Shown here: positions 6,036-63,288 of the stretch, piece after piece
Numbering within the stretch: the first letter of the stretch is position 1
Layout: each line of letters starts with the position of its first letter
NCBI GenBank assembly: GCA_963664405.1
Contig: OY761158.1
Coordinates: forward strand, 1,664,001 to 1,728,000
Length of the DNA stretch: 64,000 nt
Direction: 5' to 3'
Source of the DNA: Thermoanaerobaculia bacterium
GTDB taxonomy: Bacteria; Acidobacteriota; Thermoanaerobaculia; Multivoradales; Multivoraceae
The notes under the pieces: model-generated
Told to the model about the DNA's origin: nothing
The model's database searches: none
What the model saw: the letters and a program-made list of their open reading frames with translations, nothing else
Translations under genes and position numbers: made by a program

Positions 6036-6042
6036 ATGTTCG

Positions 6043-7209: not shown

Positions 7210-7254
7210 GGCGTTCAGACCGGTACGGCCTCGACGACTGGCCTGCGCTGCTCA

Positions 7255-7674: not shown

Positions 7675-7885
7675 GATCGGTCAAGCGCGGTTTACGAGCC
7701 TCCTCGATCCGATCGAGATCGAGGGAGCCCGGTCGGCGCAGACGTTCTATGTGGGCGACCGCCGTCTGACGATCGACCACGCTGCGTAACGCAATCTCGA
7801 TCGTGGCCCGAATCGTGCCCGCCCGAGTGGCACTACGAGCCCTCTCCAGCAGCTCGTCGTCGATCTCAACCAGTCGCTTCGTCAC
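7667..7885 (-). CDS. vapB: VapB antitoxin (copy 1)
   Basis: MTKRLVEIDDELLERA; overlaps vapC. Confidence 0.85.
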   Translation of the reverse strand: MTKRLVEIDDELLERARSATRAGTIRATIEIALRSVVDRQTAVAHIERLRRPGSLDLDRIEEARKPRLTDHG

Positions 7886-7957
7886 GAAGGGAGTATATAC
7901 CTAACACCGATTCATATATACCGCTCAGACGAGTTAGCCGTTTTCCTTGCCTGGACC

Positions 7958-16434: not shown

Positions 16435-17102
16435 TCGATGCCAGCAGAGCGCCTGGTACGATTATCGCATTCATCTGAGCATAAAGGTCATTCTGACAGG
16501 CAGTCCGCTTCGAGCCGAACCCGGTCTCAAGCGAGACTGATGGTAGAAACCTCAGGAGAAAAGAAATGATGCAAGCTGCCACTCTCAGGTCAGTTCTCTG
16601 TCTCTTCGCCATCGCCTGTCTGGTTCAGGCGCCGCTCTTGGCGGACGGCCCGCAGACAGGAACCATCGACGGTACGGTGACCGATGCCCAGGGCGGCGGC
16701 CTGCCCGGCGTCACCGTCACCCTTACCGGACCTCAGAACACTAGAACGGAAATGACCGACGCCGAGGGAGACTACCGCTTCGCCCTGCTCCAGCCTGGGG
16801 CCTACGTGGTGAACGCCACTCTCGAGGGTCTTGGCACGGCCGAGCAGGCCGTCTCCCTCGAAATGGGGCAGCGCCACGACGTCGCGCTCACTCTGCAGGC
16901 AGCCACCTCCGAGACCATCACCGTCACCGCCGAGGCGGCGATGATCTCCAAGTACGACACCGGCGCCACCTCTGCGATCCCGGAGGAGGCACTCGAGAAC
17001 GTCACCTTCACCACGCGCAACTACCTTGGGTTCAAGGGGTCGTCGCAACGTTGCCTTGGTGAGCAGAGTGTACAAACTCATCGAAGACTTCGGCAGGGGT
17101 TC

Positions 17103-17516
17103 TGAGCGGTCACGGTTTCGTGGACACCAAGTTAAGCCCCATCGGGGCAGTTCCTATTCTGCATCAGTTCGGGTAGTCAGCTTCGGACGAGGCTGTGCGA
17201 GGTTCGGGGAGCGCAGCCTCCCTTCGGATCCGACCGCCGGTCGCGCGTGAGTTCACGCTGCCCCTTCGAAGGCCTCGGGGCTCAGGAATCCGAGCGTCGA
17301 ATGCTGGCGTCTCAGGTTGTAGAACACTTCGAGGTAAGAAACCGCTTCGTCGTGAGCTCGCTGACGAGTCTCGAAGGGTCGGTCCCAGACCTCGGTCTTG
17401 AGACTGTCGAAGAAGCTCTCCAAGACCGCATTGTCATAACAATTTCCGACGCCGGACATGCTGCAGCGAAACCGCAGCTCAGCCAGCCGATCCTGGTAAG
17501 CCTTCGAGGCGTACTG
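17103..17516 (-). mobile_element. IS3-family 3' remnant (end of orfB plus terminal IR)
   Basis: QYAS...SMSGVGNCYDNAVLESFFDSLKTE...FYNLRRQHSTLGFLSP; terminal TGAGCGGTCACGGTTTCGTGGACAC. Confidence 0.85.
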
Positions 17517-17523
17517 CTTGGGT

Positions 17524-18921: not shown

Positions 18922-21249
18922 CGAAACACCTCCATCACGAGATGTTGCGACGACCAGTTGAATCCGCCTACAACACGAGTGTCCAAATGATGCCGGGCTT
19001 GGTAACCCGCAGGAAGCAGGACTTTGGCCGCCCTTCAGTTAACGGAGGCATCAGCACCGAGCTCGGCGTCTTCATCGACGGCGTCGACGTCAGCATGCCC
19101 CGTCGTGGCGGCGAGCTGCAATTTCAGATCCCGTCGACCGTAATCACCAATACCCGGATGGAAACGTCGGGTTTCGCCCCCGAGTACGGCCGCGCGACCA
19201 GCGGTGTCATGAACTCGACGATCAAGACCGGCACCAACACCTTCCACGGCGATTTTCTCTATATCGGCCAGAACCCGAAGTGGCGGTCCGAGGACTGGCT
19301 CGGGATCGAGCGTCCTGACGATCAGATCAACAGCTTCGAGGCCGGCCTCGGTGGGCCGATCTGGCGCGACAAGGCCTGGTTCTTCGCTTCCTACAACGAA
19401 CTGAATGACAACCGGCTCGACCGAACGCGGTCTGGCGACACATTCGATGTCACTCGCTCATCAGAACCGCTCATCGGCAAGGTGAACTTCCAGCCCGGGA
19501 GCCGCCATCAGGTCGCGGTGACGGCGATCGACTCGCCGTCCTCAGCGATCGGTGCCGGGGGAGTCGGCGACCAGTACGCCGTCATGACCTTTCCGATCAA
19601 CAACAGGATCCAGACCGGGACCTGGAGCTTCGCCATGACCAGCTCCGCGTTCCTCGAAACCAAGCTGGCCAACCGCGAACAGGTGGTGGGACGCGTTGCT
19701 GCCCCCCCCGCCCCGATCATCCCCGGCGTGTCTTTTGACGATCCCAACGGCAACGACTTCCGCTACCAAGATCTCAACGACGGTTTGCGATACAACGGTC
19801 CCTCGATACGCCTGGGCGCTGGGTTCAACGACTATCCGCGCGATCAGGCGAATGCCTCGGTGACCCTGTTCAAGGGAAATCACGAGCTCAAGGGCGGCGT
19901 CGACTTCCAGGACGTCACTTTCAACAACCTGACCAGCATCGAGACCGAGTTTCGCGGCCGTGGTTTCTGCCGAGAGTGCACCGGAGGCTTCCTCGCTCCG
20001 TCCACCAAGCGGGTCTTCGAGATCGGCCCGCCGGTCTCGATGAATAGCCTTATGAGTGCAGCTTATGTCCAGGACCGGCTGGACGTCGGTGACAAGCTGA
20101 CCTTCAACGTGGGGCTGCGCTACGACGAACAGTGGATCGACAACGACCTCAACGAGCGAGTCAACGAGTACAGCGAGTGGGCGCCGCGCGCAACCGTGGT
20201 CTACGACATCAACGCCGACGGCAGGCTGCTGGTGCGCGGCAGCTTGGGGCGCTACTACCACAACATCGGCCTCGGTGTCGTCTTCACGGAATTCACCCGC
20301 GGCAACAACGGTGAGAACATCTACGACCAGTTCCTCTTTAACTCTGCGACCGGGTTTTACGACCGCTTTCAGCGCCACGTCGAGCCGGTCGCGGGTGACG
20401 CCATCTCGGGCATCGTGCCCCACTACAAAGACGAGGCCTCGTTGGGCTTCGACTGGCAGTTCGCCGACAACTGGATCTTCACCTCGCGCTTCACCGTAAG
20501 CGAGATTGACAACATCTTCCACTCCAGCCTTCAGTACGACGAAGCTGGCGCAGTCGTCCGCGATCTGCGCAACTGGCCCAACAACACACGTGAGCATCAG
20601 GGTCTCACGATGAGGGTCAACCGAGCGTTTCGTAACAACTGGTCGATGAACGCCAACGTGAGTTTTCTCCCCACCGACGGCACCATCGATTCCATCACAG
20701 ACACTTCCGATCACAATGAAGCCATGGGTGGCTGCACGCTGCCGGGAGGAGGTGGCCTTTGCAACGTCACCAGCACATCCCTTTGGGACGGAGCGCTCGC
20801 GGTGGACAGGGATTACTTGGTCAACCTCGTCGGCATGAAGCGTTGGGTGTTCGGCAAGCATGACGTCATGACCAGTGCTTTCTTCCACTATTCCGCCGGT
20901 GAGGCCTGGGGATTGGCGCCCAGAGCGAATGTCTTTCACCCGGTGTCCGGACAGAGAGTCCGTACTACGGGTCGCCTCGAAGCGAGGGACGCCAATAGCC
21001 TCGAGGACTCCTACACCCTCAGCTTGAATGCGACCTACCAGTTCCCGATCGGGGGTAGGTTTCAGGGCATTATCGGCGCTGAGGCCTCCAACGTCACCGA
21101 CGAGTCGCACCAGGTCCGCGTCAACACACGGAACGGCAACCTGACCACTGGGCTCGATGCTTTCACTTTTCCGCGGGAGTTCCGCCTCAAGCTCGGTTTC
21201 AGGTTCTAAGCACGCCGAGACATAGATCGGTTTAGCTCAGATTCCGAGA

Positions 21250-21280
21250 CACCGGCGGCTTCGGCCGCCGGGGTTCTTTT
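21250..21280 (+). terminator. Rho-independent terminator (paralog of 6004)
   Basis: CCGGCGGC-TTCG-GCCGCCGG followed by TTCTTTT. Confidence 0.8.
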
Positions 21281-21328
21281 ATGTCTGAAGGTCACTCGAC
21301 GGCCTCGACGACTGGCCCGCGCTGCTGA

Positions 21329-43410: not shown

Positions 43411-43471
43411 TAGGGTGAGAAAGCGAGGCGACATGCGTTGTGTAACTGATAGTGCACGCCGGAGGCGTACG

Positions 43472-45079
43472 ATGACGCGCATCTTCAAGAGATTCCCGTT
43501 GGGTCTAGCGCTGGCGATGGGCGCGATGTGGGTCGGGGCGGGCAGCCTGCGCGCCGCTACGCTCCCGGCCGTTGATGACTGCGAGGCGCTGCCGACGATG
43601 GACTTCACGAGCATTCAGGATGCGCCGACGCAGGTGACGGCGACCCGAATGGTGGAGGCCGCCGGCGAGGTGCCCGCCCATTGCCGGATGGATGGGTATG
43701 TCGCGCCCAATGTCCGGATCGTGGTACGCCTGCCGAACAGCGCCTCGTGGAACGGTAAGTTTTTGCAGGCGAGCCCTGGTGGCTATGGCGGCTCGACGGA
43801 AACGGATGCCGCCTGGTGCGATGAGGCCTTGCGGAGAGGCTATGCCTGTCTCACACACGATACGGGGCATTTCGGCAGAACAAGAAGGGCCTCGTGGGCC
43901 TACAACAATCTCCAGGCGGAGTTCGATTACGGCATCCGCGGTCACCATGTAAGCGCCCTGGCGGGCAAGGCCATCACCGAACACTACTACGGCCGGGCGC
44001 CGGCGTTCTCCTATCATGTGGGCTGTTCCGGCGGCGGGAAGCAGGGGATGGTCGAAGCGAATCGCTTTCCCTGGAACTTCGACGGCATTCTCGCCCAGGA
44101 GCCCGCGAATGTAACAGCCACGGGTGTGATGATCCTGTGGAACGCCTTGGCAACGTACGACGCGGACGGCCAGCCGCTGTTCACATCCGCCGATCTGGAC
44201 GTGCTGCACGCGGGGGCCATTGCCGCCTGCGATGCGGACGATGGCCTCGAGGATGGGATCATCGGTGGCGATCCCCGCACCTGCCAATTCGATCCGGCCG
44301 ACCTGACCTGCGCGTCGGGGCAGACATCGGGCTGTCTATCGCCGGTCCAGGTAGAGGCGGCCAAAAAAAAGTACCGCGGGCCGGTGACATCGACCGGGGA
44401 GAAGCTCAGCAAATACTTCCCGTTCTACCCTGCCTTGCCCGGCTCGGAGAAGGGCAACTACTTCTCCATGGATCTCGAGTCCAGGACCTCGTGGGGGCGG
44501 TTCCTGGGGTTCAACCCGGATCCGGGACCGAGCTGGACGGCGACCGACTTCGATTGGGACCACGATTACAAGCGCATGGGGATGACGGATGCGCTGGTGA
44601 ATGGTTACAGCAATCCCGATCTGCGCAATTTCAAGGCTGCGGGTGGCAAGCTGCTGATCATCCAGAGTTGGGAAGACTCTGGTCTGCCCTCGCCGCAAGT
44701 CAGCATCGACTACTATGAGATGGCGGAACGCATCATGGGCGGGCGAGCCAGCACCCAAGAGGCGGTTCGGCTGTTCATGATTCCGGGCCGTACGCATTGC
44801 TATGGTGGCGTTGGTGCGGCCAGCGGCGATTATCTCAGCTATCTCGAAGCCTGGGTCGAAGAGGGTCAGGCGCCCGACATGATCGTCGGCTACCATCCCG
44901 AAGAAATGCCATCCGGGCCACGGAGTGCGGCAGCTTATGTTGAAGCGAATACCGCGGTCCCCGAGAGCTACACGTTCACGCGGCCCCACTATCCCTACCC
45001 GCTGCAGGCGCGGTACAAGGGCAGCGGCGATCCGAACGACTATCGGAGCTTCGAGCCTGTCGAACCGGAGCGTCGCTGA
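43472..45079 (+). CDS. Tannase/feruloyl esterase family hydrolase (copy 1)
   Basis: WNGKF, GCSGGG, WED, THCYGG (CS-D-HC motif). Confidence 0.9.
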   Translation: MTRIFKRFPLGLALAMGAMWVGAGSLRAATLPAVDDCEALPTMDFTSIQDAPTQVTATRMVEAAGEVPAHCRMDGYVAPNVRIVVRLPNSASWNGKFLQASPGGYGGSTETDAAWCDEALRRGYACLTHDTGHFGRTRRASWAYNNLQAEFDYGIRGHHVSALAGKAITEHYYGRAPAFSYHVGCSGGGKQGMVEANRFPWNFDGILAQEPANVTATGVMILWNALATYDADGQPLFTSADLDVLHAGAIAACDADDGLEDGIIGGDPRTCQFDPADLTCASGQTSGCLSPVQVEAAKKKYRGPVTSTGEKLSKYFPFYPALPGSEKGNYFSMDLESRTSWGRFLGFNPDPGPSWTATDFDWDHDYKRMGMTDALVNGYSNPDLRNFKAAGGKLLIIQSWEDSGLPSPQVSIDYYEMAERIMGGRASTQEAVRLFMIPGRTHCYGGVGAASGDYLSYLEAWVEEGQAPDMIVGYHPEEMPSGPRSAAAYVEANTAVPESYTFTRPHYPYPLQARYKGSGDPNDYRSFEPVEPERR

Positions 45080-45098
45080 GGTCAACAAAGGAGATACG

Positions 45099-46721
45099 AT
45101 GAAGCGCACCTTCAAGAGATTCGCGTTGGGTTTGGCGGTCGGCGGGATGTGGGTCGGGGCGGGCAGCCTGAGCGCCGCTACGCTCCCGGCCGTTGATGAC
45201 TGCGAGGCGCTGCCGGCGATGGACTTCACGAGCATTCAGGATGCGCCGACGCAGGTGACGGCGACCCGAATGGTGGAGGCCGCCGGCGAGGTGCCCGCCC
45301 ATTGCCGGATGGATGGGTATGTCACCCCCAATGTCCGGATCGTGCTACGCCTGCCCAACAGCGCCTCGTGGAACGGCAAGTTTTTGCAGGCGAGCCCTGG
45401 GGGCCAGGGCGGCTCGACGGAACAGGAGGCCGCCTGGTGCGATGAGGCCTTGCGGAGAGGCTATGCCTGTGTCACACACGATACGGGGCATTTCGGCACA
45501 ACAAGAAGGGCCTCGTGGGCCTACAACAATCTCCAGGCGGAGTTCGATTACGGCATCCGCGGTCACCATGTAAGCGCCCTGGCGGGCAAGGCCATCACCG
45601 AACACTACTACGGCCGGGCGCCGGCGTTCTCCTATCATGTGGGCTGTTCCGGTGGCGGGAAGCAGGGGATGGTCGAAGCGAGTCGCTTTCCCTGGAACTT
45701 CGACGGCATTCTCGCCCAGGAGCCCGCGAATGTAACGGCCGTGGGTGTGATGATCCTGTGGAACGCTTTGGCAACGTACGACGCGGACGGCCAGCCGCTG
45801 TTCACACCCGCCGATCTGGACGTGCTGCACGCGGGGGCCATTGCCGCCTGCGATGCGGACGATGGCCTCGAGGATGGGATCATCGGTGGCGATCCCCGCA
45901 CCTGCCAATTCGATCCGGCCGACCTGACCTGCGCGTCGGGGCAGACATCGGGCTGTCTATCGCCGGTCCAGGTGGAGGCGGCCAAAAAAAAGTACAGCGG
46001 GCCGGTGACATCGACCGGGGAGAAGCTCAGCAAATACTTCCCGTTCTACCCTGCCTTGCCCGGCTCGGAGAAGGGCAACTACTTCTCCATGGATCTCGAG
46101 TCCAGGACCTCGTGGGGGCGGTTCAAGGGGTTCAACCCGGATCCGGGACCGAGCTGGACGGCGACCGACTTCGATTGGGACCACGATTACAAGCGCATCG
46201 GGATGTCGGATGCGCTGGTGAATGGTTACAGCAATCCCGATCTGCGCAATTTCAAGGCTGCGGGTGGCAAGCTGCTCATCATCCAGGGTTGGGAAGACTC
46301 TGGTCTGCCCAGCCCGCGAGTCAGCATCGACTACTATGAGATGGCGGAACGCATCATGGGCGGGCGAGCCAGCACCCAAGAGGCGGTTCGCCTGTTCATG
46401 ATTCCGGGCCGTACGCATTGCTATGGTGGCGTTGGCGCGGCCAGCGGCGATTATCTCAGCTCTCTCGAAGCCTGGGTCGAAGAGGGCCAGGCGCCCGACA
46501 TGATCGTCGGCTACCATCCCGAAGAAACGCCATCCGGCACACGGAGTGTGAAAGCTTACGTTGAAGCGAATACCTCGGTCCCCGATAGCTACACGTTCAC
46601 GCGGCCCCATTATCCCTACCCGCTGCAGGCGCGGTACAAGGGCAGCGGCGATCCGAACGACTATCGGAGCTTCGAGCCTGTCGAACCGGAGCGAGGTGAC
46701 GGAAACCGCCACGACCCCTAA
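45099..46721 (+). CDS. Tannase/feruloyl esterase family hydrolase (copy 2, tandem duplicate)
   Basis: Nearly identical to copy 1 with the same motifs. Confidence 0.9.
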   Translation: MKRTFKRFALGLAVGGMWVGAGSLSAATLPAVDDCEALPAMDFTSIQDAPTQVTATRMVEAAGEVPAHCRMDGYVTPNVRIVLRLPNSASWNGKFLQASPGGQGGSTEQEAAWCDEALRRGYACVTHDTGHFGTTRRASWAYNNLQAEFDYGIRGHHVSALAGKAITEHYYGRAPAFSYHVGCSGGGKQGMVEASRFPWNFDGILAQEPANVTAVGVMILWNALATYDADGQPLFTPADLDVLHAGAIAACDADDGLEDGIIGGDPRTCQFDPADLTCASGQTSGCLSPVQVEAAKKKYSGPVTSTGEKLSKYFPFYPALPGSEKGNYFSMDLESRTSWGRFKGFNPDPGPSWTATDFDWDHDYKRIGMSDALVNGYSNPDLRNFKAAGGKLLIIQGWEDSGLPSPRVSIDYYEMAERIMGGRASTQEAVRLFMIPGRTHCYGGVGAASGDYLSSLEAWVEEGQAPDMIVGYHPEETPSGTRSVKAYVEANTSVPDSYTFTRPHYPYPLQARYKGSGDPNDYRSFEPVEPERGDGNRHDP

Positions 46722-52015: not shown

Positions 52016-52115
52016 GGTGCTCAACGCGGTGAGCGACCCCGAGCACGCGCTCTTCCAAAGCGAGGTCGCCCAGGAGAGAAGCTCGCCTTGTTGCATAAGC
52101 GCGCTATCCTTGTTT

Positions 52116-53849
52116 TTCAAGGCCATTCCCGTGGTCATCGACGGTCGCATGTACGTGAGCACCCCTCTCGGCCAGGTGGCGGCGATCGACGCCGCCTCGG
52201 GCAAGCCGCTGTGGAGCTACGACCCACAGAGCTGGGAGGCGGGGCGCCCGGCGAATATGGGGTTCCATCATCGCGGCGTGGCGCTCTGGCGCAAGGGCGA
52301 AAAACAACGGGTGCTGATGGCCACCCACGACCGGCGTCTGCTCTCGCTCGACGCGACAACCGGCAGGCCGGATCCCGCCTTCGGCAAGCGGGGCGCACTG
52401 GAGATGACCAGAGATCTGGGCCGCAAGGTCCTCGAGTCGCGAACCACACACAGCTCGCCGCCGGCGATCTGTCGCGACACCGTGATCGTGGGCTCGATCG
52501 TGGCCGATATGGCCACACATCAAGAGGCGCCGCCGGGCTTCGTGCGCGCCTATGATGCCGAGAGCGGCGCCCTGGCGTGGGTCTTTCACACCATCCCCCA
52601 GCAGGGAGAGGAGGGCACAGAGACCTGGGAGAACGAGTCTTGGCGCTACAGCGGCAACACCAATGTGTGGTCGATGATCACCGTCGACGAAGAGCTCGGC
52701 CTCGCCTATCTTCCGATCGGCACGCCGACGAGCGATCTCTACGGCGGTCATCGCCTCGGCGACAACCTCTACGCCGAGAGCCTGGTGGCGGTCGACTGCG
52801 AGACCGGCGAGAAGCGCTGGCACTTCCAGATCGTGCACCACGGCCTCTGGGACTACGACCTGCCACCGCCGCCGAACAGGATCGATCTGATGGTGGATGG
52901 CAAGCTCCGGAAGGTGGTGGCGCAAGCCAGCAAGCAGGCCTTCCTCTTCGTCCTCGATGCGGTGACGGGAGAGCCGCTGTGGCCGATCGAAGAGCGTCCC
53001 GTGCCTCCGAGCCAGGTGCCTGGAGAGCGCGCCTCGCCGACCCAGCCTTTCCCCACCAAGCCCGCCGCCTACGATCGCCAGGGCATCAGCGTAGACGACC
53101 TGATCGACTTCACCCCCCAGCTTCGGAAAGAAGCCCTCGAGATCGCGAGGGCGTACGAGCTGGCGCCTCTCTACACGCCGCCTCGGGTCGCGGGCAAGGG
53201 TAAGCCGGTGATCCAGCAGCCCGGTCCGGGTGGAGGCACCAACTGGACCGGCACCGCGGTCGACCCCGAAAGCGGCATGATCTACGTGCCTTCCTACGCC
53301 ACCCCGAGATCCGTTTCGCTCACCCCGCCCGACCCCAATCGATCGGATCTGCGTTACGTACCCGACGGCTGGTACGAGCACGTCGAGGGTCCTCGAGGTC
53401 TGCCGCTGGTCAAGCCGCCGTACGGACGCGTCACCGCGATCGATCTCGCTACCGGCGAGCACGTCTGGGTCGCGGCCCACGGTGAGGGGCCGCGCAACCA
53501 CCCGACGATCAAGCACTTGGGCCTGGATCGGCTGGGCTCCCCGAACCAGACAGCAGCGCCGCTGGTGACCAAGACTCTGTTGTTCGTCACCCATCGTGCC
53601 GAGAACACCACCGGCGCCGATCCCCCCACCACGGATCGACCGGCCGAGATCAGCGTTTACGACAAGAAGACCGGGGCCTACCTGGGCGGCATCGAGCTCC
53701 CCGACTCGCCCAACTCGAACCTCATCACCTACGAAGTGGGGGGTCGTCAGTATCTCGCAGTGAGCGTCGGTGGCGGAAGAGAGGCTGCCGAGACCGACAG
53801 CACTCCTGCCGGTGTGGTCGCACTCGCGCTCGCCTCCGGAAGTGATTAA
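52116..53849 (+). pseudogene. 5'-truncated paralog of the PQQ glucose-type dehydrogenase at 12250
   Basis: Similarity starts at FKAIPVVIDG; signal peptide and first motif absent; upstream sequence is a DUF3604 fragment (52015-52076). Confidence 0.8.
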
Positions 53850-53903
53850 CAATACAAAGCTAAAGCACGCCGAGACATAGATCGGTTTAGCTCAGATCCC
53901 AAG

Positions 53904-53935
53904 GCACCGGCGGCTTCGGCCGCCGGTGTTTTTTT
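53904..53935 (+). terminator. Rho-independent terminator (identical to 6004)
   Basis: Same hairpin plus T-run, preceded by the TonB-receptor 3' UTR. Confidence 0.88.
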
Positions 53936-53983
53936 ATGTCTGAAGGTCACTCGACGGCCTCGACGACTGGCCCGCGCTGCTCA

Positions 53984-54403
53984 TCAACGGTCGAGGGTAC
54001 CGGGTGCTGCGATCCATTCTGTGGGCTGGCCGGTGACCTTGGCGATCCGCTCGTAGTCGTCGTCGTAGTGCAGCACCGTCAAGTTGGCGCTCTCCGCCGT
54101 CGCGGCGACAACAAGATCCACCGGCTTTGCTCCGCGATGGAGGCCGGCGCCGGCCATGAGGCCGGCGACTTGGAGGGCGCGGTTCAAGACCTCTGGAGTG
54201 ATCACTGCCTCGGGTAGCGCCAACCTTTCGCTGATGACCTCGGGAACGTCGCGAGACCGCGAGCCGTACACCACCTCGAGGTCGAGAGGGCGGCAGCTGA
54301 AGAGGCGTCCGACTTCGGCCAACTCCTGGAGCCGAGAACCGACAGCGCTCTGAGGAGCGCGCGCTAGAACAGAAGTGTCGACCAAATAACTCGGCTCAGC
54401 CAT
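53984..54403 (-). CDS. vapC: VapC PIN toxin (copy 2)
   Basis: Nearly identical to 7255-7674. Confidence 0.9.
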   Translation of the reverse strand: MAEPSYLVDTSVLARAPQSAVGSRLQELAEVGRLFSCRPLDLEVVYGSRSRDVPEVISERLALPEAVITPEVLNRALQVAGLMAGAGLHRGAKPVDLVVAATAESANLTVLHYDDDYERIAKVTGQPTEWIAAPGTLDR

Positions 54404-54614
54404 GATCGGTCAAGCGCGGTTTACGAGCCTCCTCGATCCGATCGAGATCGAGAGAGCCCGGTCGGCGTAGACGTTCTATGTGGGCGACCGCCGTCTGACG
54501 ATCGACCACGCTGCGTAGCGCAATCTCGATCGTGGCCCGAATCGTGCCAGCCCGAGTGGCACTACGAGCCCTCTCCAGCAGCTCGTCGTCGATCTCAACC
54601 AGTCGCTTCGTCAC
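54396..54614 (-). CDS. vapB: VapB antitoxin (copy 2)
   Basis: Protein identical to 7667-7885. Confidence 0.85.
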   Translation of the reverse strand: MTKRLVEIDDELLERARSATRAGTIRATIEIALRSVVDRQTAVAHIERLRRPGSLDLDRIEEARKPRLTDHG

Positions 54615-54779
54615 GAAGGGAGTATATACCTATCACCCATTAATATATACCGCTCAGACGAGTTAGCCGCTTTCTTACCTGGAGGCCGTATCTCTCTGAT
54701 TGAATTTATAAAGTTCAATTTACATGATACTCTCGGACACGGCTTAGTCAGCACAACCGCAGCCAAGGAGACCCCCGCC

Positions 54780-55976
54780 ACGATTCCAAGAGCCCTCAGC
54801 CCCGTTCTCAGAGACCGCGCAAGCCACTACCCCGTAGTGACCTTGACCGGTCCGCGCCAATCGGGGAAGACGACCCTGGTCAAAGAGTGCTTCGCGAGTC
54901 ACCAGTACGTCAGCTTGGAGGAGCCCGACACCCGCTCCTTTGCGCTCGAAGACCCTCGAGGGTTTCTCGGCCAGTTTCGGGAGGGCGTCGTGCTCGACGA
55001 AGTCCAGCGCACCCCGGATCTCTTCTCCTACATCCAGACGCTGGTCGATGACGATCCACGGCCGGGACGATTCGTGCTCTCCGGCTCACAGAACTTCCTG
55101 CTCTTGCGCTCGGTCGGACAGTCTCTTGCCGGCCGCTCCACCGTCCTACACCTGCTACCACTGTCTCTGAGCGAGCTGGCCCGGCGTCCCACGTTAGACC
55201 CCGATCGACTCGAGATCGAGCTCGTCGAGGATCGATCGGAGTGGGACCAACCTCTGACGGAGACACTGTTTCGCGGCTTCTACCCGAGGCTACAAACCGC
55301 CGGTTTGGACGCCACCACCTGGCTCGCCGACTACTACCAGACCTATATCGAGCGCGACGTGCGCGAGATCGTCAACGTGGGTGATCTCGATGCCTTCGGT
55401 CGCTTCATCAGATTGTGTGCGGGGCGCAACGGCCAGCTGCTGAACCTCTCTTCGCTGGCCAACGACTGCGGGATTACCCACACAACCACAAGAAGGTGGC
55501 TGTCCATTCTCGAAGCGAGCTTCGTCGTCCGCCTTCTTCGCCCACACCATGCGAACTTCTCGAAGCGGCTGATCAAGAGCCCAAAGCTCTACTTTCTGGA
55601 TTCCGGACTCTTGTGCTACCTGCTCCGAATCCGGACTGCCCAAGACCTCGAGACCCACGGGTCTCGCGGATCGGTCTTCGAGACCTTTGTCTACGCTGAG
55701 CTGGCCAAGAGTTTCCTCAACCACGGACGTGAGATCGACCTCTACTTCTGGCGCACCTCAGGGGGCCGAGAGGTCGACTTTCTGGTGCAGCGAGGCGAGG
55801 AGCTGTTGGCGATCGAGGCAAAATCGGGGCAGACCGTCGCCTCAGACTTCTTCTCCGGTCTGCTCTATTGGCGAGATCTACACGGTCACGAAGACTGGCC
55901 GGCGCTGCTGGTCACCGGCGGCGACCGCAGCTTTCGACAACGAGGGGTCGACGTCATCTCGTGGCGCCGGCTCTGA
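54780..55976 (+). CDS. AAA_14 ATPase with DUF4143 domain
   Basis: GPRQSGKTT, LDEVQ, SGS, SLAGR, KLYFLDSG, EVDFL..AIEAK; start probably ACG at 54780, or GTG at 54837. Confidence 0.9.
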   Translation, partial: TIPRALSPVLRDRASHYPVVTLTGPRQSGKTTLVKECFASHQYVSLEEPDTRSFALEDPRGFLGQFREGVVLDEVQRTPDLFSYIQTLVDDDPRPGRFVLSGSQNFLLLRSVGQSLAGRSTVLHLLPLSLSELARRPTLDPDRLEIELVEDRSEWDQPLTETLFRGFYPRLQTAGLDATTWLADYYQTYIERDVREIVNVGDLDAFGRFIRLCAGRNGQLLNLSSLANDCGITHTTTRRWLSILEASFVVRLLRPHHANFSKRLIKSPKLYFLDSGLLCYLLRIRTAQDLETHGSRGSVFETFVYAELAKSFLNHGREIDLYFWRTSGGREVDFLVQRGEELLAIEAKSGQTVASDFFSGLLYWRDLHGHEDWPALLVTGGDRSFRQRGVDVISWRRL

Positions 55977-56035
55977 TCGGCAGCGTCATCTCTTCGTCGA
56001 GTGAGAAGTCGGCTTGTGCTCGGACGAGCACTGAC

Positions 56036-56383
56036 TTAGCGGCGGCGCGTGAAGCGCCAGCTTTCGGCACGCTGCGCTTCGGTGAGGAAACCGTTGGCTG
56101 AGGATCTTTCGAGCTCCTGGCGCGTGTAGGCAAAGAGATCCATGCCGACGGGGAAGGACTCGGGAAGATAGTCGGCGGTCCGGTCCTGGAAGGGTTTGCT
56201 CGAGCCGGAAAGGATCAGAAGAACGTCGACGTCGCTTCCGGGCGAGTAAGTGCCGCGAGGGAAGGAGCCGAAGACCACGACCTCCTCGACCTCGGGACGA
56301 GTCTCGAGAAGTTGGCGGGCAAACTCGGCGGTCTGTCGCCGAATCGCCTCGAAGTCAATCGATTTGACGACGACAGAACTCAA
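56036..56383 (-). CDS. Minimal nucleotidyltransferase (MNT)
   Basis: VVVFGSFPRG...SDVDVLLI; TTG start inferred. Confidence 0.82.
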   Translation of the reverse strand: MSSVVVKSIDFEAIRRQTAEFARQLLETRPEVEEVVVFGSFPRGTYSPGSDVDVLLILSGSSKPFQDRTADYLPESFPVGMDLFAYTRQELERSSANGFLTEAQRAESWRFTRRR

Positions 56384-56744
56384 GAATCTCTCCCGCTGCG
56401 GCGATGGCGCGCTCAGCTTCCCCAGCGGTGTAGAAGTCGGTCGGAGCGCCCTGCTCGAGTCCGTTCGGATAACGGGTCGGAATGTAGTGCTTGTCGAGCT
56501 CCTTGGCTCGATCCGAAAGCGAGGTCTCGATTTCGACTCTGTCGCTGAGATGGCCCAAGAGAAGAGAGAGCGTGTGACCCCATGCGTCGAGATGGAGTTT
56601 CTGAAAGACGGCCTTGATCGCCTTTTCGGCGGCCTGATGACAGGCAAAGGCCGCCCAATCGTAGTCGCCGACGTCGCGAGCGTTCCTCGCATGACGGAGG
56701 TCTGCCTGCGCTTGGCGCATCCAGTCTTGCGATCTCTCGGGCAT
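56355..56744 (-). CDS. HEPN domain protein
   Basis: WMRQAQADL..A, FACHQAAEKAIKA, HTL, YIPTRYP. Confidence 0.88.
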   Translation of the reverse strand: MPERSQDWMRQAQADLRHARNARDVGDYDWAAFACHQAAEKAIKAVFQKLHLDAWGHTLSLLLGHLSDRVEIETSLSDRAKELDKHYIPTRYPNGLEQGAPTDFYTAGEAERAIAAAGEILEFCRRQID

Positions 56745-56879
56745 CGTGGCGAGAACCTGTGAGCGCAGCTGCACTCCGTTGATTCGCAGGTCGAGTCTAG
56801 CGCATGCTCCTCGACCGACCGGATCTCAGCGGGTCGCGCTCGAGGGCTATCGCTATGTCTGTGCTATTATGTATGAGTC

Positions 56880-57116
56880 ATGAGACGTACTACGGTGATG
56901 CTGCCAGAGGACCTGAAGGTTCGAGCGGAGCGCTACGCTCGAGAGGTGGGAGTGTCGCTGGGCGAGCTGATTCGCCGCTCTCTGGCGAGCTCGCTCAGCC
57001 AGCCAGGCTCCGTGGCCGAGGATCCGTTGTTCGCGGATGACGCGACCTACGCGGGGAGCGTACCGGCGGGCTACGCCGTCGATCACGACGACTACCTCTA
57101 CGGCGACAAGTCGTGA
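56880..57116 (+). CDS. CopG/RHH antitoxin
   Basis: MRRTTVMLPEDL..GVSLGELIRR; C-terminal HDDYLYG. Confidence 0.85.
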   Translation: MRRTTVMLPEDLKVRAERYAREVGVSLGELIRRSLASSLSQPGSVAEDPLFADDATYAGSVPAGYAVDHDDYLYGDKS

Positions 57117-57517
57117 TCTTTGTCGACACCGGGGCCTTCTTGGCTCGGTATCTCGAGCGCGATCAACATCACGAGCGAGCCGTCGAGGGTTGGCAGCGCC
57201 TGCGCGACCACCGAGTGGCGACGACGAGTCACGTCCTCGACGAGGTCTTCACCCTGCTCGGTCGCCGGGCAGGCAACGCCTTCGCTGCGGAACGGGCGCG
57301 CAGAGTCTTGACCTCGCAGGTACTTCAGGTGGTACGGCCAGGCCTCGATGACGAGCTTGCGGCGCTGACCTTCTTCGAGAAGTTCGGCGACCAGCGGGTG
57401 AGCTTCACCGATGCCCTCTCGTTCACTGTGATGGGAAGGCTCTCGATCGAGCGGGCTTTCAGCTTCGATCGCCACTTCGCGCTAGCCGGTTTCGAGCTCT
57501 GGCCCGAGCCGAGGTGA
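57113..57517 (+). CDS. vapC: VapC PIN toxin
   Basis: IFVDTGAF, LDE, SFTDALSF, AFSFDRHF. Confidence 0.9.
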   Translation: MIFVDTGAFLARYLERDQHHERAVEGWQRLRDHRVATTSHVLDEVFTLLGRRAGNAFAAERARRVLTSQVLQVVRPGLDDELAALTFFEKFGDQRVSFTDALSFTVMGRLSIERAFSFDRHFALAGFELWPEPR

Positions 57518-57612: not shown

Positions 57613-57774
57613 AGACCAGCGTTTCCAAAGTTCGTGTCGCATAGCTCGAGGTCATTCTGTTCGCTGGCCAGGCGCGCCGACGCAGGCATATTGGGCAATA
57701 TATCGAGGAGGCGCAACGCCGCCAGCGGGCCGAAGGGGCCGAGATATGTGCGCGAACTTTGGAAACGCTGGTCT
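57613..57774. mobile_element. MITE-like element with perfect 22-bp TIRs
   Basis: AGACCAGCGTTTCCAAAGTTCG ... CGAACTTTGGAAACGCTGGTCT. Confidence 0.8.
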
Positions 57775-57799: not shown

Positions 57800-58025
57800 T
57801 TAGCTCCACGTTTGGCGATCGAGCCAGTCGATGAGAATGCGATTCAGCTCCTCGGGCTGCTCCTGCTGGGTCCAGTGCCCACAGTCCTCGATCGTCTGCT
57901 TCTCGAGATTCCGCACCCACTTCTCCAGGCCGTCCGCTGAAGAAGGTGGCAGCACCGCATCGTCGGCGGCGCCGATATAGAGGCTCGGTTGCTCGACGTT
58001 GAAGTCGAGGCCTTTGCTCTCCTCC
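57800..58025 (-). pseudogene. Alpha/beta (epoxide) hydrolase C-terminal remnant
   Basis: PSLYIGAADDAVLPP...DCGHWTQQEQPEELNRILIDWL. Confidence 0.8.
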
Positions 58026-58026
58026 C

Positions 58027-58358
58027 CCCAGCAGCCTCTGGCTGCTCGAGGTGCCACCCGAATAGTCTGCCGCCCGTTCCTGGTTCGCTCACAAGGTGTC
58101 ACCCTCTTCTCGAGGACGGCGGATGGGGCGACCAGAGTCGCTACCAGCTCCGTGTTCCCACTCGTAAGATGTTGACATTATTCGATTTAGATGGAGCCAA
58201 GATTCCTAAAGATATTCGGCTGTAGTACCGTCGGCAGCCCCAGCCCAGAGCCAAGCAGCCATCGGCCGAATGAATGTATAGCGCCGTCGAGGGATTTGCG
58301 GCCAAGCGATCAGCCCAATTGGATGATCGCGAACGCCCAGAATCCCGTTGGGCCTACC
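58027..58358. repeat. Dispersed repeat: unit B (hairpin + dif-like site at 58170-58197) followed directly by unit A
   Basis: Similar to 61564-61730 and to 6241-6365. Confidence 0.75.
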
Positions 58359-58374
58359 CCTCTACGATGGCCGA

Positions 58375-60953
58375 TCAGGAACGCAGACGCAGAGTCACGC
58401 CGTAGGTGCGGGGCGCTTCCAGGAAGACCGCGCGGCTACCCACCCGTAGCGGCGTGTTGAACGTCACGTTCCGGGTCCGCTCGTCGGTGACGTTGTCGCC
58501 CCAAAGCTCGACCGTCCAGCTGTTCGAGTAGCTCCCGAAGCCGACCCTGAGGTGCAGCTTCGTGTTGGCCTCTTGGATGTCGAAGGCCAAGTTGGGCTGG
58601 GTGCTGGTCCGGCGTTCATCCTCGTAACGGGCGTGGGCGGAGGCGAAGTAGAAGAACTTCCGCTCAATCGTGTCGTTCCAGGCCAGGCTTCCGGTGACCA
58701 CGTTCTCGGGTGCGTTGGTCAGGGGCGCACCGCACAGCGTACTGACGGTGGGAGTCTCAATCCCCAGGTCGCAGTCGACGGGATAGTTGGAGTCGGAGTA
58801 GGTATAGCCGAGGGAAAAATCGAGTCCCGCGATCGGGCGTCCGGTGAGCTCGAGCTCGAAGCCACTGCTCTCGGCCTTCGGAACGTTGAACGTCACGAAC
58901 TGCACACCGGTGAACTCGAGCACCTGAAAATCCTCGATGTCGTAGTCGAACAGCGCCAAGTTCAACCGGTAGCGTCTATCGCCGAACTCGGACTTGAGAC
59001 CAAGCTCCCAGGAGTCGATCTTCTCGGAATCGAAGCGCGGATCGCCGCCGGCCGCCGCCGCCGTCGGGTCGAGGTTGAAGCCTCCCGACTTGAAGCCGTG
59101 GTCGAAGCTGAGATAGCCGGTCGTGCGCTGGTTGAAGGAGTAGACGGCCTTGCCGGTGTAGATCGTGTCGTCATCCTCGAAGGTGTCATCGAAAGTCGCG
59201 GGCAGGATCGAGATGCCTAGCGCCGGTGTGGCGAACGGGAAACAGGCGAAGCCGGCCGAGAAGCCGCCGATGGTTGCCGCTACCACCTCGAGCCCGGTGC
59301 CGGCCGCTCCGGCGGCCAGCGCCCCGGCGTTGAACAGGGAGTTCAGGCAAGCTTGGTTGTTGCCGCCGAGCTGTCGGAAGCTCCCGTCCTTGGTCTCGTC
59401 GACGTAGCGCAGCCCGGCGACGAGATCAAAGCTCGGGCTCACGTGGAAGGTGTTGTTGGTGAACAAGGACCAGGACCGCCCATCCTGCTCGAAGAGATTC
59501 TGGGCGAACGAGCCACTGGAGTCGACGCCGCCGGCGAAGGCGAGGGCCTGGTTGTCGGCAGCCAGGATGTCTCCGAACGTACCGCCGGTCGCCATCGGGA
59601 CGCGCCCGAGCAACGGTGCCGCCGGCAGCACTGGCCCGAAAGCGAAGTTCCAGAGCATGGCGTCCATGTTCTGGGTATAGGCCGTGCCGAGACCCAAGCC
59701 CCCCTGCTCGACGATCTCTTCGTCCGAGGCGTACGCACCCAGCATCCAACTGACCCGTTCCGTGTCGCCGGTGACGCGAAGCTCGTGTGTCATCGACTGG
59801 ATGTCGTCGAAGCTCTGGAAGCCACCCGCTGCCTCCGGACGAACGGAGAATACGTCGATGCCGACGAAATCGGTGTGCTGGACGGTCTCCGCCTTGAAGT
59901 CGCGCACGGCACCGATGTAGGTGAGAGCCACATTACCGCCGAAGACGTGGTTCAGCTCCGCTGAGATGCCCCCCTGGTCGTAGGGATTCTCGAACTGCTC
60001 AGCGTTGGAGATGCGGTTCTCGAGCGCCGAAAATCCGAGACGGGGGCACCGCCATCCGCCGGCAGCCCCGCTGCTGCGAAGGAACCGACAGCCACTCCCC
60101 CACTCTCCAGGATGATCGGCGCGTCACAACAATTCTCGTCGGCGTCGGCGTAGTCCCCAATGATCCGCAGCGATGTTGCCTCACCGATGTCCCAGAGCAG
60201 CTGCCCCCGGACGAGCACGCGGTCGCGATTGCGGCTCTCGGCGCCGGTCGTGCTCCTCAGGAACCCGTCCTGCGTCCGGTAGGCGGCAGACACCCGGTAG
60301 GCCACGTCCTCGGAAAGAGTCCCGGCGGCGCCACCCTGGACGTTGGCCCCTGAGAAGTTCGCGGCGGTCAGGTTGGCGAACGCGGCAAAGCCTTCGAAGC
60401 CTGGCGCCTTGGTGCGGACGTTCAGCGCCCCGGCAGTCACGTTGCGCCCGAACAAAGTCCCTTGCGGGCCGCGCAGCACCTCGATGGCCTCGATGTCGAG
60501 CTGATCCCCCAAGGCGATCCCCGGACGGCTCAGGTACACGCCGTCCATAAAAACGCCGACGGCGCTCTCGAGGCCGATGTTGTTGCCCGTCGTGCCGACG
60601 CCGCGGATGCGAAGCGTCGTGCCCTGCGACTCCGTCTGCGTCGAGTTCATGTTGAAGCTGGGGACCAGCAGCGGTAGATCACGCAGATCCTTGACGCCCG
60701 CCCGCTCGAGCTGCGTTTCATCCAACGCCGTGATCGCGATTGGAACTTTCTGAAGCGATTCCAAGCGCTTCGTCCCCGTCACGTGCACGGTTTCGAGAAA
60801 GACAGCTTTCGGCTCCTCACGCTCCTCCCGACCGTCGACCTCGTCCGCCTGTTCCGCCTGTTCCGCCTGCGCCAGGGCCGGCGCGGCCGGCAGTTGCAGC
60901 GCCAACAGCAACAGGGGCAAGACTCGGAGCCACCACTTCATCGATGCCTTCAT
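58375..60953 (-). pseudogene. TonB-dependent receptor split by a -1 frameshift near 60035
   Basis: Plug IEVLRGPQGTLFGRN in 59952-60953; barrel GFKSGGFN..PRTYGVTL in a different frame. Confidence 0.85.
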
Positions 60954-61221
60954 GACCTTCACCTCCACAAGTGTCCTTCTCTGGGTCCAACACGCGCCGT
61001 GGACGCTTGCTTCCCGGCGCCGCGAGCAAGCAGAGCGGGGCTCCACCGGACAAGCGATCCACCCAACTCTGATTCAGTCTGGAACTGTGTCTGGGGAGAT
61101 CGTACCAGAAACGACGTCACCACGGCCGGAGCTGGATGAGCGGCCGCGAGCGCACGCGCCTGACTCGTCCTATGGCAGTGGCCCGGAACTGCCGGGGCTT
61201 CCGGTTGGTTTGACGGTCGTG

Positions 61222-61563
61222 TTACGCCAAAGCGGACTCGAACAGGACCAGTAGTCGGCTCCATGCCCGCTCTGCCTGCGCCTCGTCGTAGACCTGGGAA
61301 TCAGGCGGACACCAGCCATGCATGGTGCCCTCGTAGACCTCGATTTCCGCCGGAATGTTCGCGGCGGCATACGCGTCACGCAGGGTGTTCTTTGCCTCGG
61401 GGGTACGCTCGTCGTCATTGCCCGCCACGCAGTGCAACATGTGGGCGGTTGTCTCCGGGATGAGCAGGTGCGGACTATCCGGGGCATCGGTAGCGAGTCC
61501 ACCGCCGTGAAACGTGGCGCCCGCGCCCAGGCGCTCCGGCACCGCAGCCACAGTGCGCATGAC
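61222..61563 (-). pseudogene. Dienelactone hydrolase C-terminal remnant
   Basis: GATFHGG, EIEVYEGTMHGWC, AERAWSRLL; nucleophile region missing. Confidence 0.8.
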
Positions 61564-61730
61564 CCCGGCAGCCTTCGGCTGGGATAGGTGCCACCCTCTT
61601 ATAGAGGGGAGCGCTTGGGGGCGACATGGTCGTCGTCAAATTCGACGTTTTCACTGGTAAGCTATTGACATAATTTGATTTAGATGGAGCCGAGATTCCT
61701 TCGCATATTCGCGTGGCACCCATGGCAGCC
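61564..61730. repeat. Dispersed repeat unit B with dif-like site at 61663-61690
   Basis: CCCGGCAGCCTTCGGCTG..AGGTGCCACCCTCTT..TATTGACATAA-TTTGAT-TTAGATGGAGC. Confidence 0.75.
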
Positions 61731-61803
61731 CAACGCCCAAGGCCTGCCGGGGTCCGCTGCTCGGCCTCTCCAGTGGATCACCCATGTCTCCGGGACTTTC
61801 ACA

Positions 61804-62321
61804 ATGAGCAACCAGGCCACTGCGGCCACGATCACCATCTCGGGCCACAGCGGAAGGATCTTCCTCGATGGTCACGAGGTGGGCGTGGTACGCAAGCCTG
61901 CCAACGCGTATTCGTGCGTTGACGAGGGTGTTCCACTCGCCCTCGAGGTCGAAGCGGGCGAGCATGAGATCTATCCCAAGTTCGCCACGGGTCGCTCAGT
62001 GCCTCTGAAGTTGCGCTTGGCCTCTGGGCAGAGACTCGACCTCCACATTGAATCGCCGGTGGGCTCAACGGGACTCGGTACCTCGCCAACGCCGATCATT
62101 CGTTGGCGCCGGTGCTCCCCCATCGCTCGCTGATGATTCTCATACTGTCGCTGCTGGGACTCCCCGGAATCGCGGCTTTCTCGATGGCGCGCGTGGATCT
62201 CGAACTGATGGAACGCGGCCAGATGGAAAAATCTGGACGAAGAGGGACCGTCGTGGGCACGTGGATCGGACTCTTCCATTGCTGTCTCTGGCTCGCGATG
62301 CTTGCCCTGAGGGCTACATAA
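61804..62321 (+). CDS. Hypothetical protein(s): beta-rich domain plus a DUF4190-like membrane segment in another frame (likely frameshifted)
   Basis: ORF 61804-62133 overlaps ORF 62103-62321 (PHRSLMILILSLLG..MARVDLELMERGQMEKSGR). Confidence 0.5.
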
Positions 62322-62325
62322 GGAA

Positions 62326-62415
62326 CCCGGCGGCCCGAGGCGCCAGCCGAATATTTCTGACGCCCGGCGGGGAGGGATTTGCGGCCAAGCGATCAGCCCG
62401 AACGGGTGATCGCGG
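62326..62415. repeat. Dispersed repeat unit A (truncated)
   Basis: GCCAGCCGAATATT..GGGGAGGGATTTGCGGCCAAGCGATCAGCCC..GGGTGATCGCG. Confidence 0.75.
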
Positions 62416-62505
62416 GATCGGGATGCTATGAAGCAGCGGCCAGACCTCGCGACCCGAGACATCTTCACCAATGCGATCGGGTAGGCTGAAGTCTGGAGGT
62501 CGACG

Positions 62506-63288
62506 ATGCCGAAGGTCCTGTTCGAGAAGGCCGGCGCGATTGCCCGGATCACCATCAACCGCCCCGAGCGGTTGAATGCCTGCGATTTCGAGACCTATCG
62601 GATGCTCGGGGAAGCCTGGCTCGAGGTCGATCGCGATCCCGAGATCCGGGTCGCGATTCTGACCGGCGCCGGCGAACGCGCCTTCTGCGCGGGCAGCGAC
62701 ATCAAGTCGGACTACGTCGACTCGGGCAGCGGCCGGCAAGCCGCCCACGAGGAGGAGGACAGCGACGAGCGACCGCCCGGACCCGGGGATGTGCGCAAGC
62801 CCGTGATCGCCGCCATCAACGGACACGCAAATGGTGGCGGACTCGAGCAGGCGCTGGCTTGCGACATCCGCGTAGCCGCCGAGCACTCCCAGTTCGGACT
62901 CGGAGAAGTTCGGCTCGGTTGGCTTCCGGGAGCCGGAGGGACTCAGCGGCTCCCGCGTCTGCTCCCGCTCGGTCGCGCGCTCGAAATGCTGTACACCGGA
63001 AATCGAATCGACGCGGCCGAGGCCTACCGGCTCGGCTTGGTCGACCACGTCGTCCCGATGGATGCACTGATCGCAAAGGCCGACCGCATTGCCGACGAGA
63101 TCTGCCGGAGCGCCCCGCTCGCCGTAGAGCGCATCAAGCAGGTCGCCCTAGAGGGCCTGGACCTGCCTCTCGAACAAGGACTCCAGCTCGAACGTGAGGG
63201 CTTCCGCGATCTGATGCAGACCGAGGACTCCATCGAAGGCGCCCTCGCATTCGCGGAGAAGCGGCCGCCGCGCTGGACCGGGAAGTAG
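62506..63288 (+). CDS. Enoyl-CoA hydratase/isomerase
   Basis: ITINRPERLNA, FCAGSD, AINGHANGGGLE, GAGGTQRL. Confidence 0.93.
   Translation: MPKVLFEKAGAIARITINRPERLNACDFETYRMLGEAWLEVDRDPEIRVAILTGAGERAFCAGSDIKSDYVDSGSGRQAAHEEEDSDERPPGPGDVRKPVIAAINGHANGGGLEQALACDIRVAAEHSQFGLGEVRLGWLPGAGGTQRLPRLLPLGRALEMLYTGNRIDAAEAYRLGLVDHVVPMDALIAKADRIADEICRSAPLAVERIKQVALEGLDLPLEQGLQLEREGFRDLMQTEDSIEGALAFAEKRPPRWTGK

Follow-up and report, generated by a model that had tools for sequence, protein, structure and literature searches.

In NIMEs, the intergenic mosaic elements of Neisseria, short inverted repeats flank modules of 50–150 bp in arrays and have been proposed as recombinase targets near variable genes, promoting exchange there; that description states that such arrays were not observed outside Neisseria (PMC1797815). 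The group 3 repetitive extragenic palindromes (REPs) of Stenotrophomonas maltophilia are presented as short and generally perfect palindromes (e.g., with an 8-bp stem and a 3-nt loop) for which a GTAG 5' of the palindrome is defining and needed for cleavage by REP-associated tyrosine transposases (RAYTs) (PMC8266576), and REPINs are two inverted REPs with a spacer (PMC3337134). For insertion sequences (ISs) of the IS200/IS605 type, insertion is described as always 3' of a fixed short sequence (PMC5027513). Here, we describe a set of small repeats in a 64,000-nt stretch of a Thermoanaerobaculia bacterium (Acidobacteriota; assembly GCA_963664405.1, contig OY761158.1, positions 1,664,001–1,728,000; referred to throughout as the window and numbered from its first base), in which a hairpin end module, E, is joined to either of two interiors, A or B, at three sites. 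We tentatively read these repeats, with somewhat less than an even chance of being right, as a small lineage-restricted, non-autonomous family of mosaic palindromic repeats with a design like that of NIMEs or of REPs and bacterial interspersed mosaic elements (BIMEs), whose hairpin tip is a rearrangement-prone end.

Module E is a stretch of about 30 nt common to the units and composed of CCC, a hairpin (GGCAGCC-TTC-GGCTGCC), a linker of 3–4 nt and the box AGGTGCCA; at three sites the hairpin is a perfect 7-bp stem with a 3-nt loop. An earlier, sequence-only reading of this DNA had reported the hairpin at 6241, 58027 and 61564, and this recurrence holds: the hairpin-plus-box pattern GCAGCCTNNGGCTG-N3-4-AGGTGCCA has three matches in the window (6245, 58031 and 61568, all on the + strand) and none in 100 of 100 dinucleotide-preserving shuffles. 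The repeats are real and not random. Altogether, three intact, one deleted and one partial copy of E lie on the + strand, and two inverted copies end the two B units. Both interiors are joined to E at one point, after GYCA: two of two B interiors come after GYCA, and the start of A follows GCCA in all three direct copies that have an E. In 826 nt of element sequence (6236–6370, 58020–58365, 61556–61800 and 62320–62420), the pentamer CAGCC is found 13 times, against 1.4 expected from its frequency in the window, with five occurrences of its complement GGCTG in the same 826 nt, and these pentamers may be putative iterated protein-binding sites.

Site 1 has the simplest order, E1–A1, in which E1 (6241–6269, + strand; CCC, GGCAGCC-TTC-GGCTGCC, AAGGTGCCA) is followed by the A interior A1 (6270–6365, +; GCCGAACAT ... 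AGGGATTTGC ... a central 11-bp hairpin ... CTACC), whose right edge, CTACC, recurs at site 2. At site 3, E3L (61563–61593, +) leads into the second copy of the B interior (61594–61704, +; AT-rich core at 61665–61700) and then into E3inv (61705–61752, − strand), an inverted array made up of the A start, the box, a hairpin whose loop has 9 nt, and CCCC; after 50 nt and two open reading frames (ORFs) follow E3R (62326–62345, +; CCCGGCGGCC-CGAGGCGCCA), recognized by alignment and lacking 9 nt of the loop and right arm, and A3 (62346–62414, +), an A interior minus its last ~27 nt. Sites 1 (E|A) and 3 (E|B...ORFs...E'|A) are colinear across GCCA|GCCGAA. Site 2 begins with E2 (58026–58056, +; CCCC, AGCAGCC-TCT-GGCTGCT, CGAGGTGCCA) and continues with a piece at 58057–58101 (+) that holds a 23-nt A-start fragment (CCCGAATAGTCTGCC...), a partial E in the form of a remnant of the right hairpin arm, and a second box (AAGGTGTCA); next come the first copy of the B interior (58102–58211, +; conserved AT-rich core at 58172–58207), an inverted A start, box and hairpin with a degenerate outer arm (58212–58260, −; p about 0.003 against E1 and E2 by Smith-Waterman alignment), and A2 (58265–58358, +), an A interior without its own E. 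The extra 46-nt piece with the second box and the A-start fragment, absent from the sequence-only reading, is 82% identical to site 1 over 45 nt by blastn, also matches the A start of site 3 and is recovered by nhmmer at E=0.037. Site 2, where three copies of E lie in 240 nt, is a rearranged array of hairpin ends rather than the empty B–A form proposed earlier, and the segment 58230–58262, formerly assigned to unit A, is its inverted hairpin-end copy, A at this site starting at 58265.

The right border of B is an inverted E plus the first 9 nt of A: both B tails, when reverse complemented, show the hairpin, the box and the first nine bases of A (GCCGAATAT). By Smith-Waterman alignment, the site 3 tail scored 40 against E3L (null maximum 24) and 37 against site 1 (null maximum 29), neither score being reached in 300 shuffles, while the site 2 tail scored 27 against site 1 and 25 against E2 (p about 0.003 for each, 300 shuffles). 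A profile for nhmmer built from E1, E2 and E3L only and run on the window gave, as its best additional match, the minus strand at 61714–61753 in the site 3 B tail (E=0.51). Since B is closed on its right by an inverted E, at the outer tip of which the mutual homology of the two B copies stops, it is a self-contained unit, namely E, an interior of about 110 nt with an AT-rich core, and an inverted E, in total an inverted doublet of ~190 nt. This end at 61713–61752 speaks against the earlier proposal of a single unit running from B through cargo to A; the TATTCG formerly listed as a B feature is the reverse complement of the A start within the inverted hairpin end, and an inverted-repeat search found no 11-6-11 site in B such as had been described. 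A MAFFT alignment of five E copies misplaces the long-loop and deleted ones, and the homology of E3R rests on by-eye alignment together with its position before A.

The A interior is a GC-rich module of ~95 nt with a conserved core and a central hairpin, and E–A forms a singlet. Its core, AGGGATTTGCNGCCNAGCGNTCAGCCC, has three matches in the window and none in shuffles, and nhmmer returned three copies of unit A (6242–6367, 58260–58359 and 62326–62416) plus a partial A start at 58039–58068; pairwise identities are 83% over 70 nt (sites 1 and 2), 78% over 88 nt (sites 1 and 3) and 86% over 50 nt (sites 2 and 3). For unit B, the AT-rich core matched twice in the window and not in shuffles, and the two copies (58086–58260 and 61579–61759) are 72% identical over 162 nt, with far higher conservation in the core than around it. 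Whole-window profile searches gave no full copy of A beyond the three or of B beyond the two, and the A and B interiors are unrelated to one another (p>0.13 in 12 of 12 comparisons). Folded as single-stranded DNA, the site 3 B pairs its two ends, E3L with E3inv, at -40.8 kcal/mol against -29.7 +/- 3.1 for shuffles (z=-3.62, with 0 of 200 as good), and the E1 hairpin is present in the centroid fold; from two B sequences only, covariation carries little information, compensatory changes being seen in 2 of 27 pairs on the + strand and in 1 of 23 on the − strand. At the right end of A, the minus strand reads GGTAG followed by a hairpin with a 5-bp stem, GCCCA-N9-TGGGC (6361–6365 and 58354–58358), in two of the three A copies.

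The repeats carry no coding or known-RNA signal. ORFs drawn across A and B have a third-position GC content (GC3) of 0.58–0.62, compared with 0.72–0.83 for the genes of the window; by reading, the one frame open in all A copies has 2 synonymous differences among 10 differing codons, and the common start of B, MEPRFL(K/R)IF, goes out of frame after nine codons. In the protein collection, the ORF 58191–58457, a possible mis-call across A, had no candidate copy, and the A part of the minus-strand ORF 61974–62558 had one candidate, with none scored. Rfam returned no match at the gathering score in the whole window, and at E<=5 only weak, unrelated matches around the three sites. A promoter in B was rejected (no sigma-70-like sites by consensus against 0.5 expected, and a TTGACA without a -10 element at usable spacing), as were a minus-strand sigma-54 site in the box (TGGCAC-N5-..GC, spaced correctly at site 1 only) and a tRNA-like 3' end (..GGTGCCA; no T-arm, and no tRNA by ARAGORN).

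All three intact hairpins abut minus-strand genes truncated at their 5' ends, an observation of the sequence-only reading that the paralogue of the first gene and the profile coverage of the two hydrolases confirm at three of three sites. At E1, the neighbour (6044–6242, −) is a 3' fragment of the gene for the nucleotidyltransferase antitoxin MNT together with the last 12 codons of a DUF4143 ATPase gene. It is 97% identical over 200 nt to 55942–56141, where the similarity stops at ..GAGATCC and the intact copy, which matches Pfam NTP_transf_2, continues at 56142. Because the fragment is also cut on its left, at a breakpoint at 6044, and its 12 ATPase codons differ (by reading) only synonymously, it derives from a further, third intact paralogue; for the same two reasons, integration of an island into MNT with the 200-bp copies as att repeats was rejected. 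The fragment differs from its intact paralogue by 3%, whereas the element copies differ among themselves by 14–28%, and at least the junction at E1 is therefore much younger than the repeat family. At E2 lies a C-terminal alpha/beta-hydrolase fragment of about the last 75 aa (57803–58027, −; Pfam Abhydrolase_1 184–243/245, NCBIfam 192–250/251), and at E3L a C-terminal dienelactone-hydrolase fragment (61225–61560, −; Pfam DLH 114–215/217, NCBIfam YghX 197–290/292). These two belong to different families, which led us to discard a tandem duplication as the origin of sites 2 and 3. Their lost N-terminal halves do not lie across the elements, no such Pfam match being present among the 80 window ORFs scanned.

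The polarity of these truncations is evident when all borders are considered. Five E tips face non-element DNA, and three of them abut truncated genes; of the other two, one is found 50 nt upstream of the first site 3 ORF and one 4 nt past the second ORF's stop. Truncated genes are absent from all three right ends of A: A1 stops ~120–130 nt upstream of hicB, A2 16 nt past the stop of a TonB-dependent receptor gene, and A3 at a distance of 91 nt upstream of an enoyl-CoA hydratase gene. The chance of three of five E tips falling at truncated ends is ~0.005 by a crude estimate that takes roughly 10 truncated among some 150 gene ends.

To account for this pattern, we suggest that the units are non-autonomous and that a nuclease or recombinase whose gene lies in another part of the genome would recognize E, probably in its folded, single-stranded hairpin form, the outer tip of E being the active end. 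Once a unit has inserted, adjacent deletion or exchange mediated by this end would leave the resident gene cut exactly at the tip, and new units might favour places beside existing E copies, giving rise to local arrays. Because the window holds no recombinase, any such enzyme would act in trans. The earlier proposal of a non-autonomous element served in trans thus survives as to its non-coding repeat and its sharp hairpin end, and the linked tyrosine recombinase or HUH transposase that it suggested looking for is absent from the 80 window ORFs.

The closest parallel in design is with NIMEs, composed of the repeat dRS3 and RS modules. There as here, local arrays are formed in which a short GC-rich inverted-repeat unit stands between unrelated non-coding modules of tens to ~200 bp, and GC-rich repeat units alternate with AT-richer modules. 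NIME arrays contain diverse modules of 19–214 bp; sites 2 (E, a 27-nt A start, a partial E, the 110-nt B interior, an inverted E and a 94-nt A) and 3 (E, the B interior and an inverted E) are built in this manner, the likeness being one of design only. NIMEs and the repeats described here are both linked to recombination end points and variable neighbouring genes, and a trans-acting recombinase has been proposed for NIMEs (PMC1797815). The sequences are unrelated, however, the dRS3 motif ATTCCC-N8-GGGAAT having no match in the three element regions, and E, consisting of a hairpin plus a box, has an orientation and no symmetry, unlike the symmetric dRS3; the copies known here are a mere handful, as opposed to hundreds. 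Truncation of genes exactly at the repeat tip, as seen in the window, is not a feature met in the available part of the NIME account (PMC1797815).

REPs, REPINs and BIMEs, which are associated with RAYT (TnpA-REP) enzymes of the HUH Y1 type, share with E a short, perfect, GC-rich hairpin that occurs in singlets (E–A) and in inverted doublets (both B units). BIMEs combine REPs with other short modules, and E is likewise joined to modules. E differs from classical REPs, and was rejected as one, in having CCC(C) where RAYT enzymes need GTAG: on its 5' side the hairpin is preceded by TCCC, CCCC or CCCC when read on the + strand and by a CACCTT-like sequence on the − strand. The arrangement of GTAG plus palindrome is resembled instead, in two of the three copies, by the minus strand at A's right end (CTAC at 6361 and 58354), where the hairpin is a different one with a 5-bp stem. 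The B doublet, at ~190 nt, is presumably longer than REPINs, and a Pfam scan found no Y1 transposase, RAYT or TnpA gene in the window. The repeats may resemble IS200/IS605 derivatives (palindrome-associated elements) and other HUH hairpin-plus-nick-site systems, as far as so few copies can tell, in a junction point (GCCA|) fixed about 10 nt past the hairpin and in the lack of a target duplication, and their outward-facing units are all on one strand. IS200/IS605 elements have subterminal hairpins, and their ends are not inverted repeats of each other; B differs in having inverted E ends, with the hairpin 0–3 nt from the outer tip.

Several results weigh against our preferred reading of a non-autonomous family with an active hairpin tip. 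Only three loci are known, all in one 64-kb window that is itself a mosaic, in which 15 other distinct boundaries have no E, so that truncation is common here without it. A scan with one exact pattern, made up of 20 fixed A-core bases, across 185,579 species-representative genomes, evidently not including the source genome, gave no true further copy of A; a lone match, in a coding region of a low-GC archaeal metagenome-assembled genome with no likeness outside the pattern, was read as chance. A blastn search of plasmids in distant mode with sites 3 and 1 likewise gave no match. Among the 80 window ORFs, Pfam provided no candidate enzyme, the only transposases being IS30/rve ones at 17256–18921; GTAG is absent next to the E hairpin; and no target-site duplication flanks any unit, the B flanks at site 3 (...GCGCATGA | TCCGCTGC...) and the E–A flanks having no common direct repeat. 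Furthermore, the E profile run on the window missed E3R, the fold of the site 2 B, whose inverted E is degenerate, is no better than shuffles (z=-0.56), and the folds of A alone are not significant (z of -1.9, -1.8 and -0.35 on the + strand).

Should the hairpin tip be active, the family would be a marker and possibly a driver of gene truncation and shuffling in a region rich in toxin–antitoxin genes and duplications, and it would extend mosaic repeats in the style of REPs/BIMEs and NIMEs to a new lineage with a different recognition motif, implying a cognate enzyme. A bolder version, which we regard as quite unlikely, is that E belongs to an undescribed hairpin-end recombination system outside Neisseria and the RAYT family, with a trans-acting enzyme that would cut at the E tip and at GCCA| and shuffle non-coding modules and gene fragments, including those of toxin–antitoxin genes, between E sites. 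If that were true, E-flanked segments such as 61594–62345 would be true mobile cassettes, and the mosaic of truncated and duplicated genes in the region would be explained.

Of the alternatives, the one that survives best, an unlikely but serious contender, is that B is a MITE (miniature inverted-repeat transposable element) that arose by internal deletion from a classical DDE transposon, with E as the terminal inverted repeat of an unseen parent IS and E–A as decayed solo ends; the truncations would then result from transposase-mediated adjacent deletions or from recombination between copies. Such an origin fits the site 3 B, which at ~190 nt is non-coding and has imperfect terminal inverted repeats of ~32–40 nt, and thereby resembles MITEs and the Tn3-derived miniature elements (TIMEs), in the comparison with which the repeats measure ~35 nt. 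Insertion sequences classically give rise to adjacent deletions that start at their ends, and IS remnants are near (a weak IS481-like fragment at 6990–7139 and the IS30 element at 17527–18921). The terminal repeats that are clear for the site 3 B are nevertheless degenerate at site 2 and absent for A, which has no inverted E on its right although two A copies have the same right edge, and the E–A singlets show one end only; a target-site duplication was not found. No IS in the window carries E, and neither E, A nor B shows similarity to the IS30/rve region (17025–18967) or to the rest of the window. DDE elements do not usually, to our knowledge, carry a perfect hairpin at the extreme end of a terminal repeat, and Tn3-family repeats begin with GGGG where the E tip has CCCC on the 5' strand.

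It is also unlikely, in our judgement, that the repeats were never mobile, being instead leftovers of old duplications in a decaying region rich in duplications, or conserved regulatory or structural sequences, with the GC-rich palindrome acting as a fragile site that ends deletions by replication slippage or hairpin cleavage. The window is indeed rich in paralogous segments (72–97% identity) and gene fragments, the E1 junction and the intact MNT sequence have a 2-nt microhomology (CC), and the AT-rich core of B is conserved far above its surroundings, all of which would suit such a history. Against it, the flanks of the three loci are unrelated genes and not simple segmental duplicates, the edges are shared and sharp, E occurs in both orientations and with different interiors, and promoter-like sites are at 0 against 0.5 expected. 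If the repeats are inert, they would be a lineage-specific intergenic repeat of use in annotation, marking three pseudogene boundaries and the spurious ORFs across A and B.

A refined form of the cassette insertion put forward in the sequence-only reading is more doubtful still. It would take E as a recombination or nick site of a tyrosine recombinase or HUH enzyme, the segment 61594–62345 (B, ORFs and E', running from just past the E3L box to that of E3R) as inserted at GCCA|GCCGAA, and site 1 as the empty form. Removal of these 752 nt does leave a sequence colinear with site 1; the segment is flanked by two direct E repeats; the starts of both B copies after GYCA, and of the three direct A copies with an E after GCCA, are as a common insertion point would have them; and the empty site contains a 10-5-10 palindrome, TTCGGCTGCC-AAGGT-GCCAGCCGAA. 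This palindrome is not kept at other sites, however, and while the colinearity of sites 1 and 3 stands, there is only one loaded locus, whose E3R is degenerate and without statistical support; B, bounded by its inverted E, is a unit of its own, site 2 fits neither the empty nor the loaded form, and the truncated gene on the left flank of E is left unexplained. Integron cassettes with attC sites were rejected, since the three element regions contain no pair of RYYYAAC and GTTRRRY 40–130 nt apart (a lone GTTRRRY stands at 58347, and unpaired RYYYAAC occurs at 61728 and 62063 only) and Pfam found no Phage_integrase match among the 80 window ORFs scanned.

The two ORFs between B and E–A at site 3 (61804–62321, +), which start 50 nt beyond the inverted-repeat-bounded B, look like an ordinary small operon neighbouring these units and not like cargo. 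They encode 110 aa (61804–62133) and then 62 aa with two hydrophobic segments (62133–62321), share one base in a TGATG overlap, and have GC3 values of 0.74 and 0.68, near those of the window genes. The first protein found only itself in a word-indexed search of 5.77 billion proteins, and an exhaustive search gave only two weak partial matches (E=5.5e-6 and 2.5e-4), to proteins that carry CBM6 and PEGA repeats, which suggests a predicted beta-sandwich domain.

The surrounding window (1–64000) is a mosaic of segmental duplications with 72–97% identity, interspersed with ATPase, TonB-receptor, DUF3604 and transposase fragments and an IS30 insertion. The duplications include 3720–6039 with 18968–21284 (94%), 12483–13975 with 52112–53604 (94%), 7225–7955 with 53954–54683 (96%), and a tandem tannase pair (43468–45072 and 45095–46693, 96%), and there are several DUF3604 and pyrroloquinoline quinone (PQQ)-dehydrogenase paralogues at 72–86%. 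An intrinsic terminator, CACCGGCGGC-TTCG-GCCGCCGGTG with a T run, occurs in three copies that are 91–97% identical (5963–6039, 21208–21284 and 53863–53939) and follow TonB-receptor or PQQ-dehydrogenase genes; its stem is like the E hairpin, which has no T run. A long inverted repeat (57617–57645 and 57744–57771; CCAGCGTTTCCAAAGTTCG..., perfect over at least 19 nt, arms ~95 nt apart) falls within the 285 nt that separate a PIN gene's end from the stop of the truncated hydrolase next to E2, and may be a separate small element.

To the right of site 1, just beyond hicBA, a minus-strand frame at 6990–7139 weakly resembles the linker between the helix-turn-helix and catalytic domains of an IS481 transposase (NCBIfam NF033577, E=0.0011, 85–131/284), and after this IS481-like remnant come 70 nt left over from a TonB-receptor 3' end (7140–7209). 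Farther on, a 1.9-kb insertion (17025–18967) splits a TonB-dependent receptor gene into an N-terminal part (16566–17102) and a remainder (18777–21206); it contains an IS30 transposase gene (17527–18921, NCBIfam E=1.4e-72) and an rve_2/rve_3 fragment (17256–17672). The TonB-dependent receptor gene between sites 2 and 3 (58375–61046, −) is split into two ORFs, for the plug (59955–61046) and the barrel (58378–59931), which indicates a frameshift or a pseudogene; its product ends in Ser, where we take an aromatic last residue to be typical.

Finally, the window is dense in toxin–antitoxin genes (1336–2690, 6486–6940, 7255–7885, 53987–54614 and 56039–57517), comprising a ribbon-helix-helix (RHH)–PIN pair, a pair ending in a PIN-like gene, HicB–HicA, two near-identical VapB–PIN pairs, MNT with its upstream partner, and a further RHH–PIN pair. 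Some of their promoters, identified by eye, are TTGAYC-N17-TAGTAT-like and lie ~7 nt before the ATG, which suggests that those transcripts may be leaderless.

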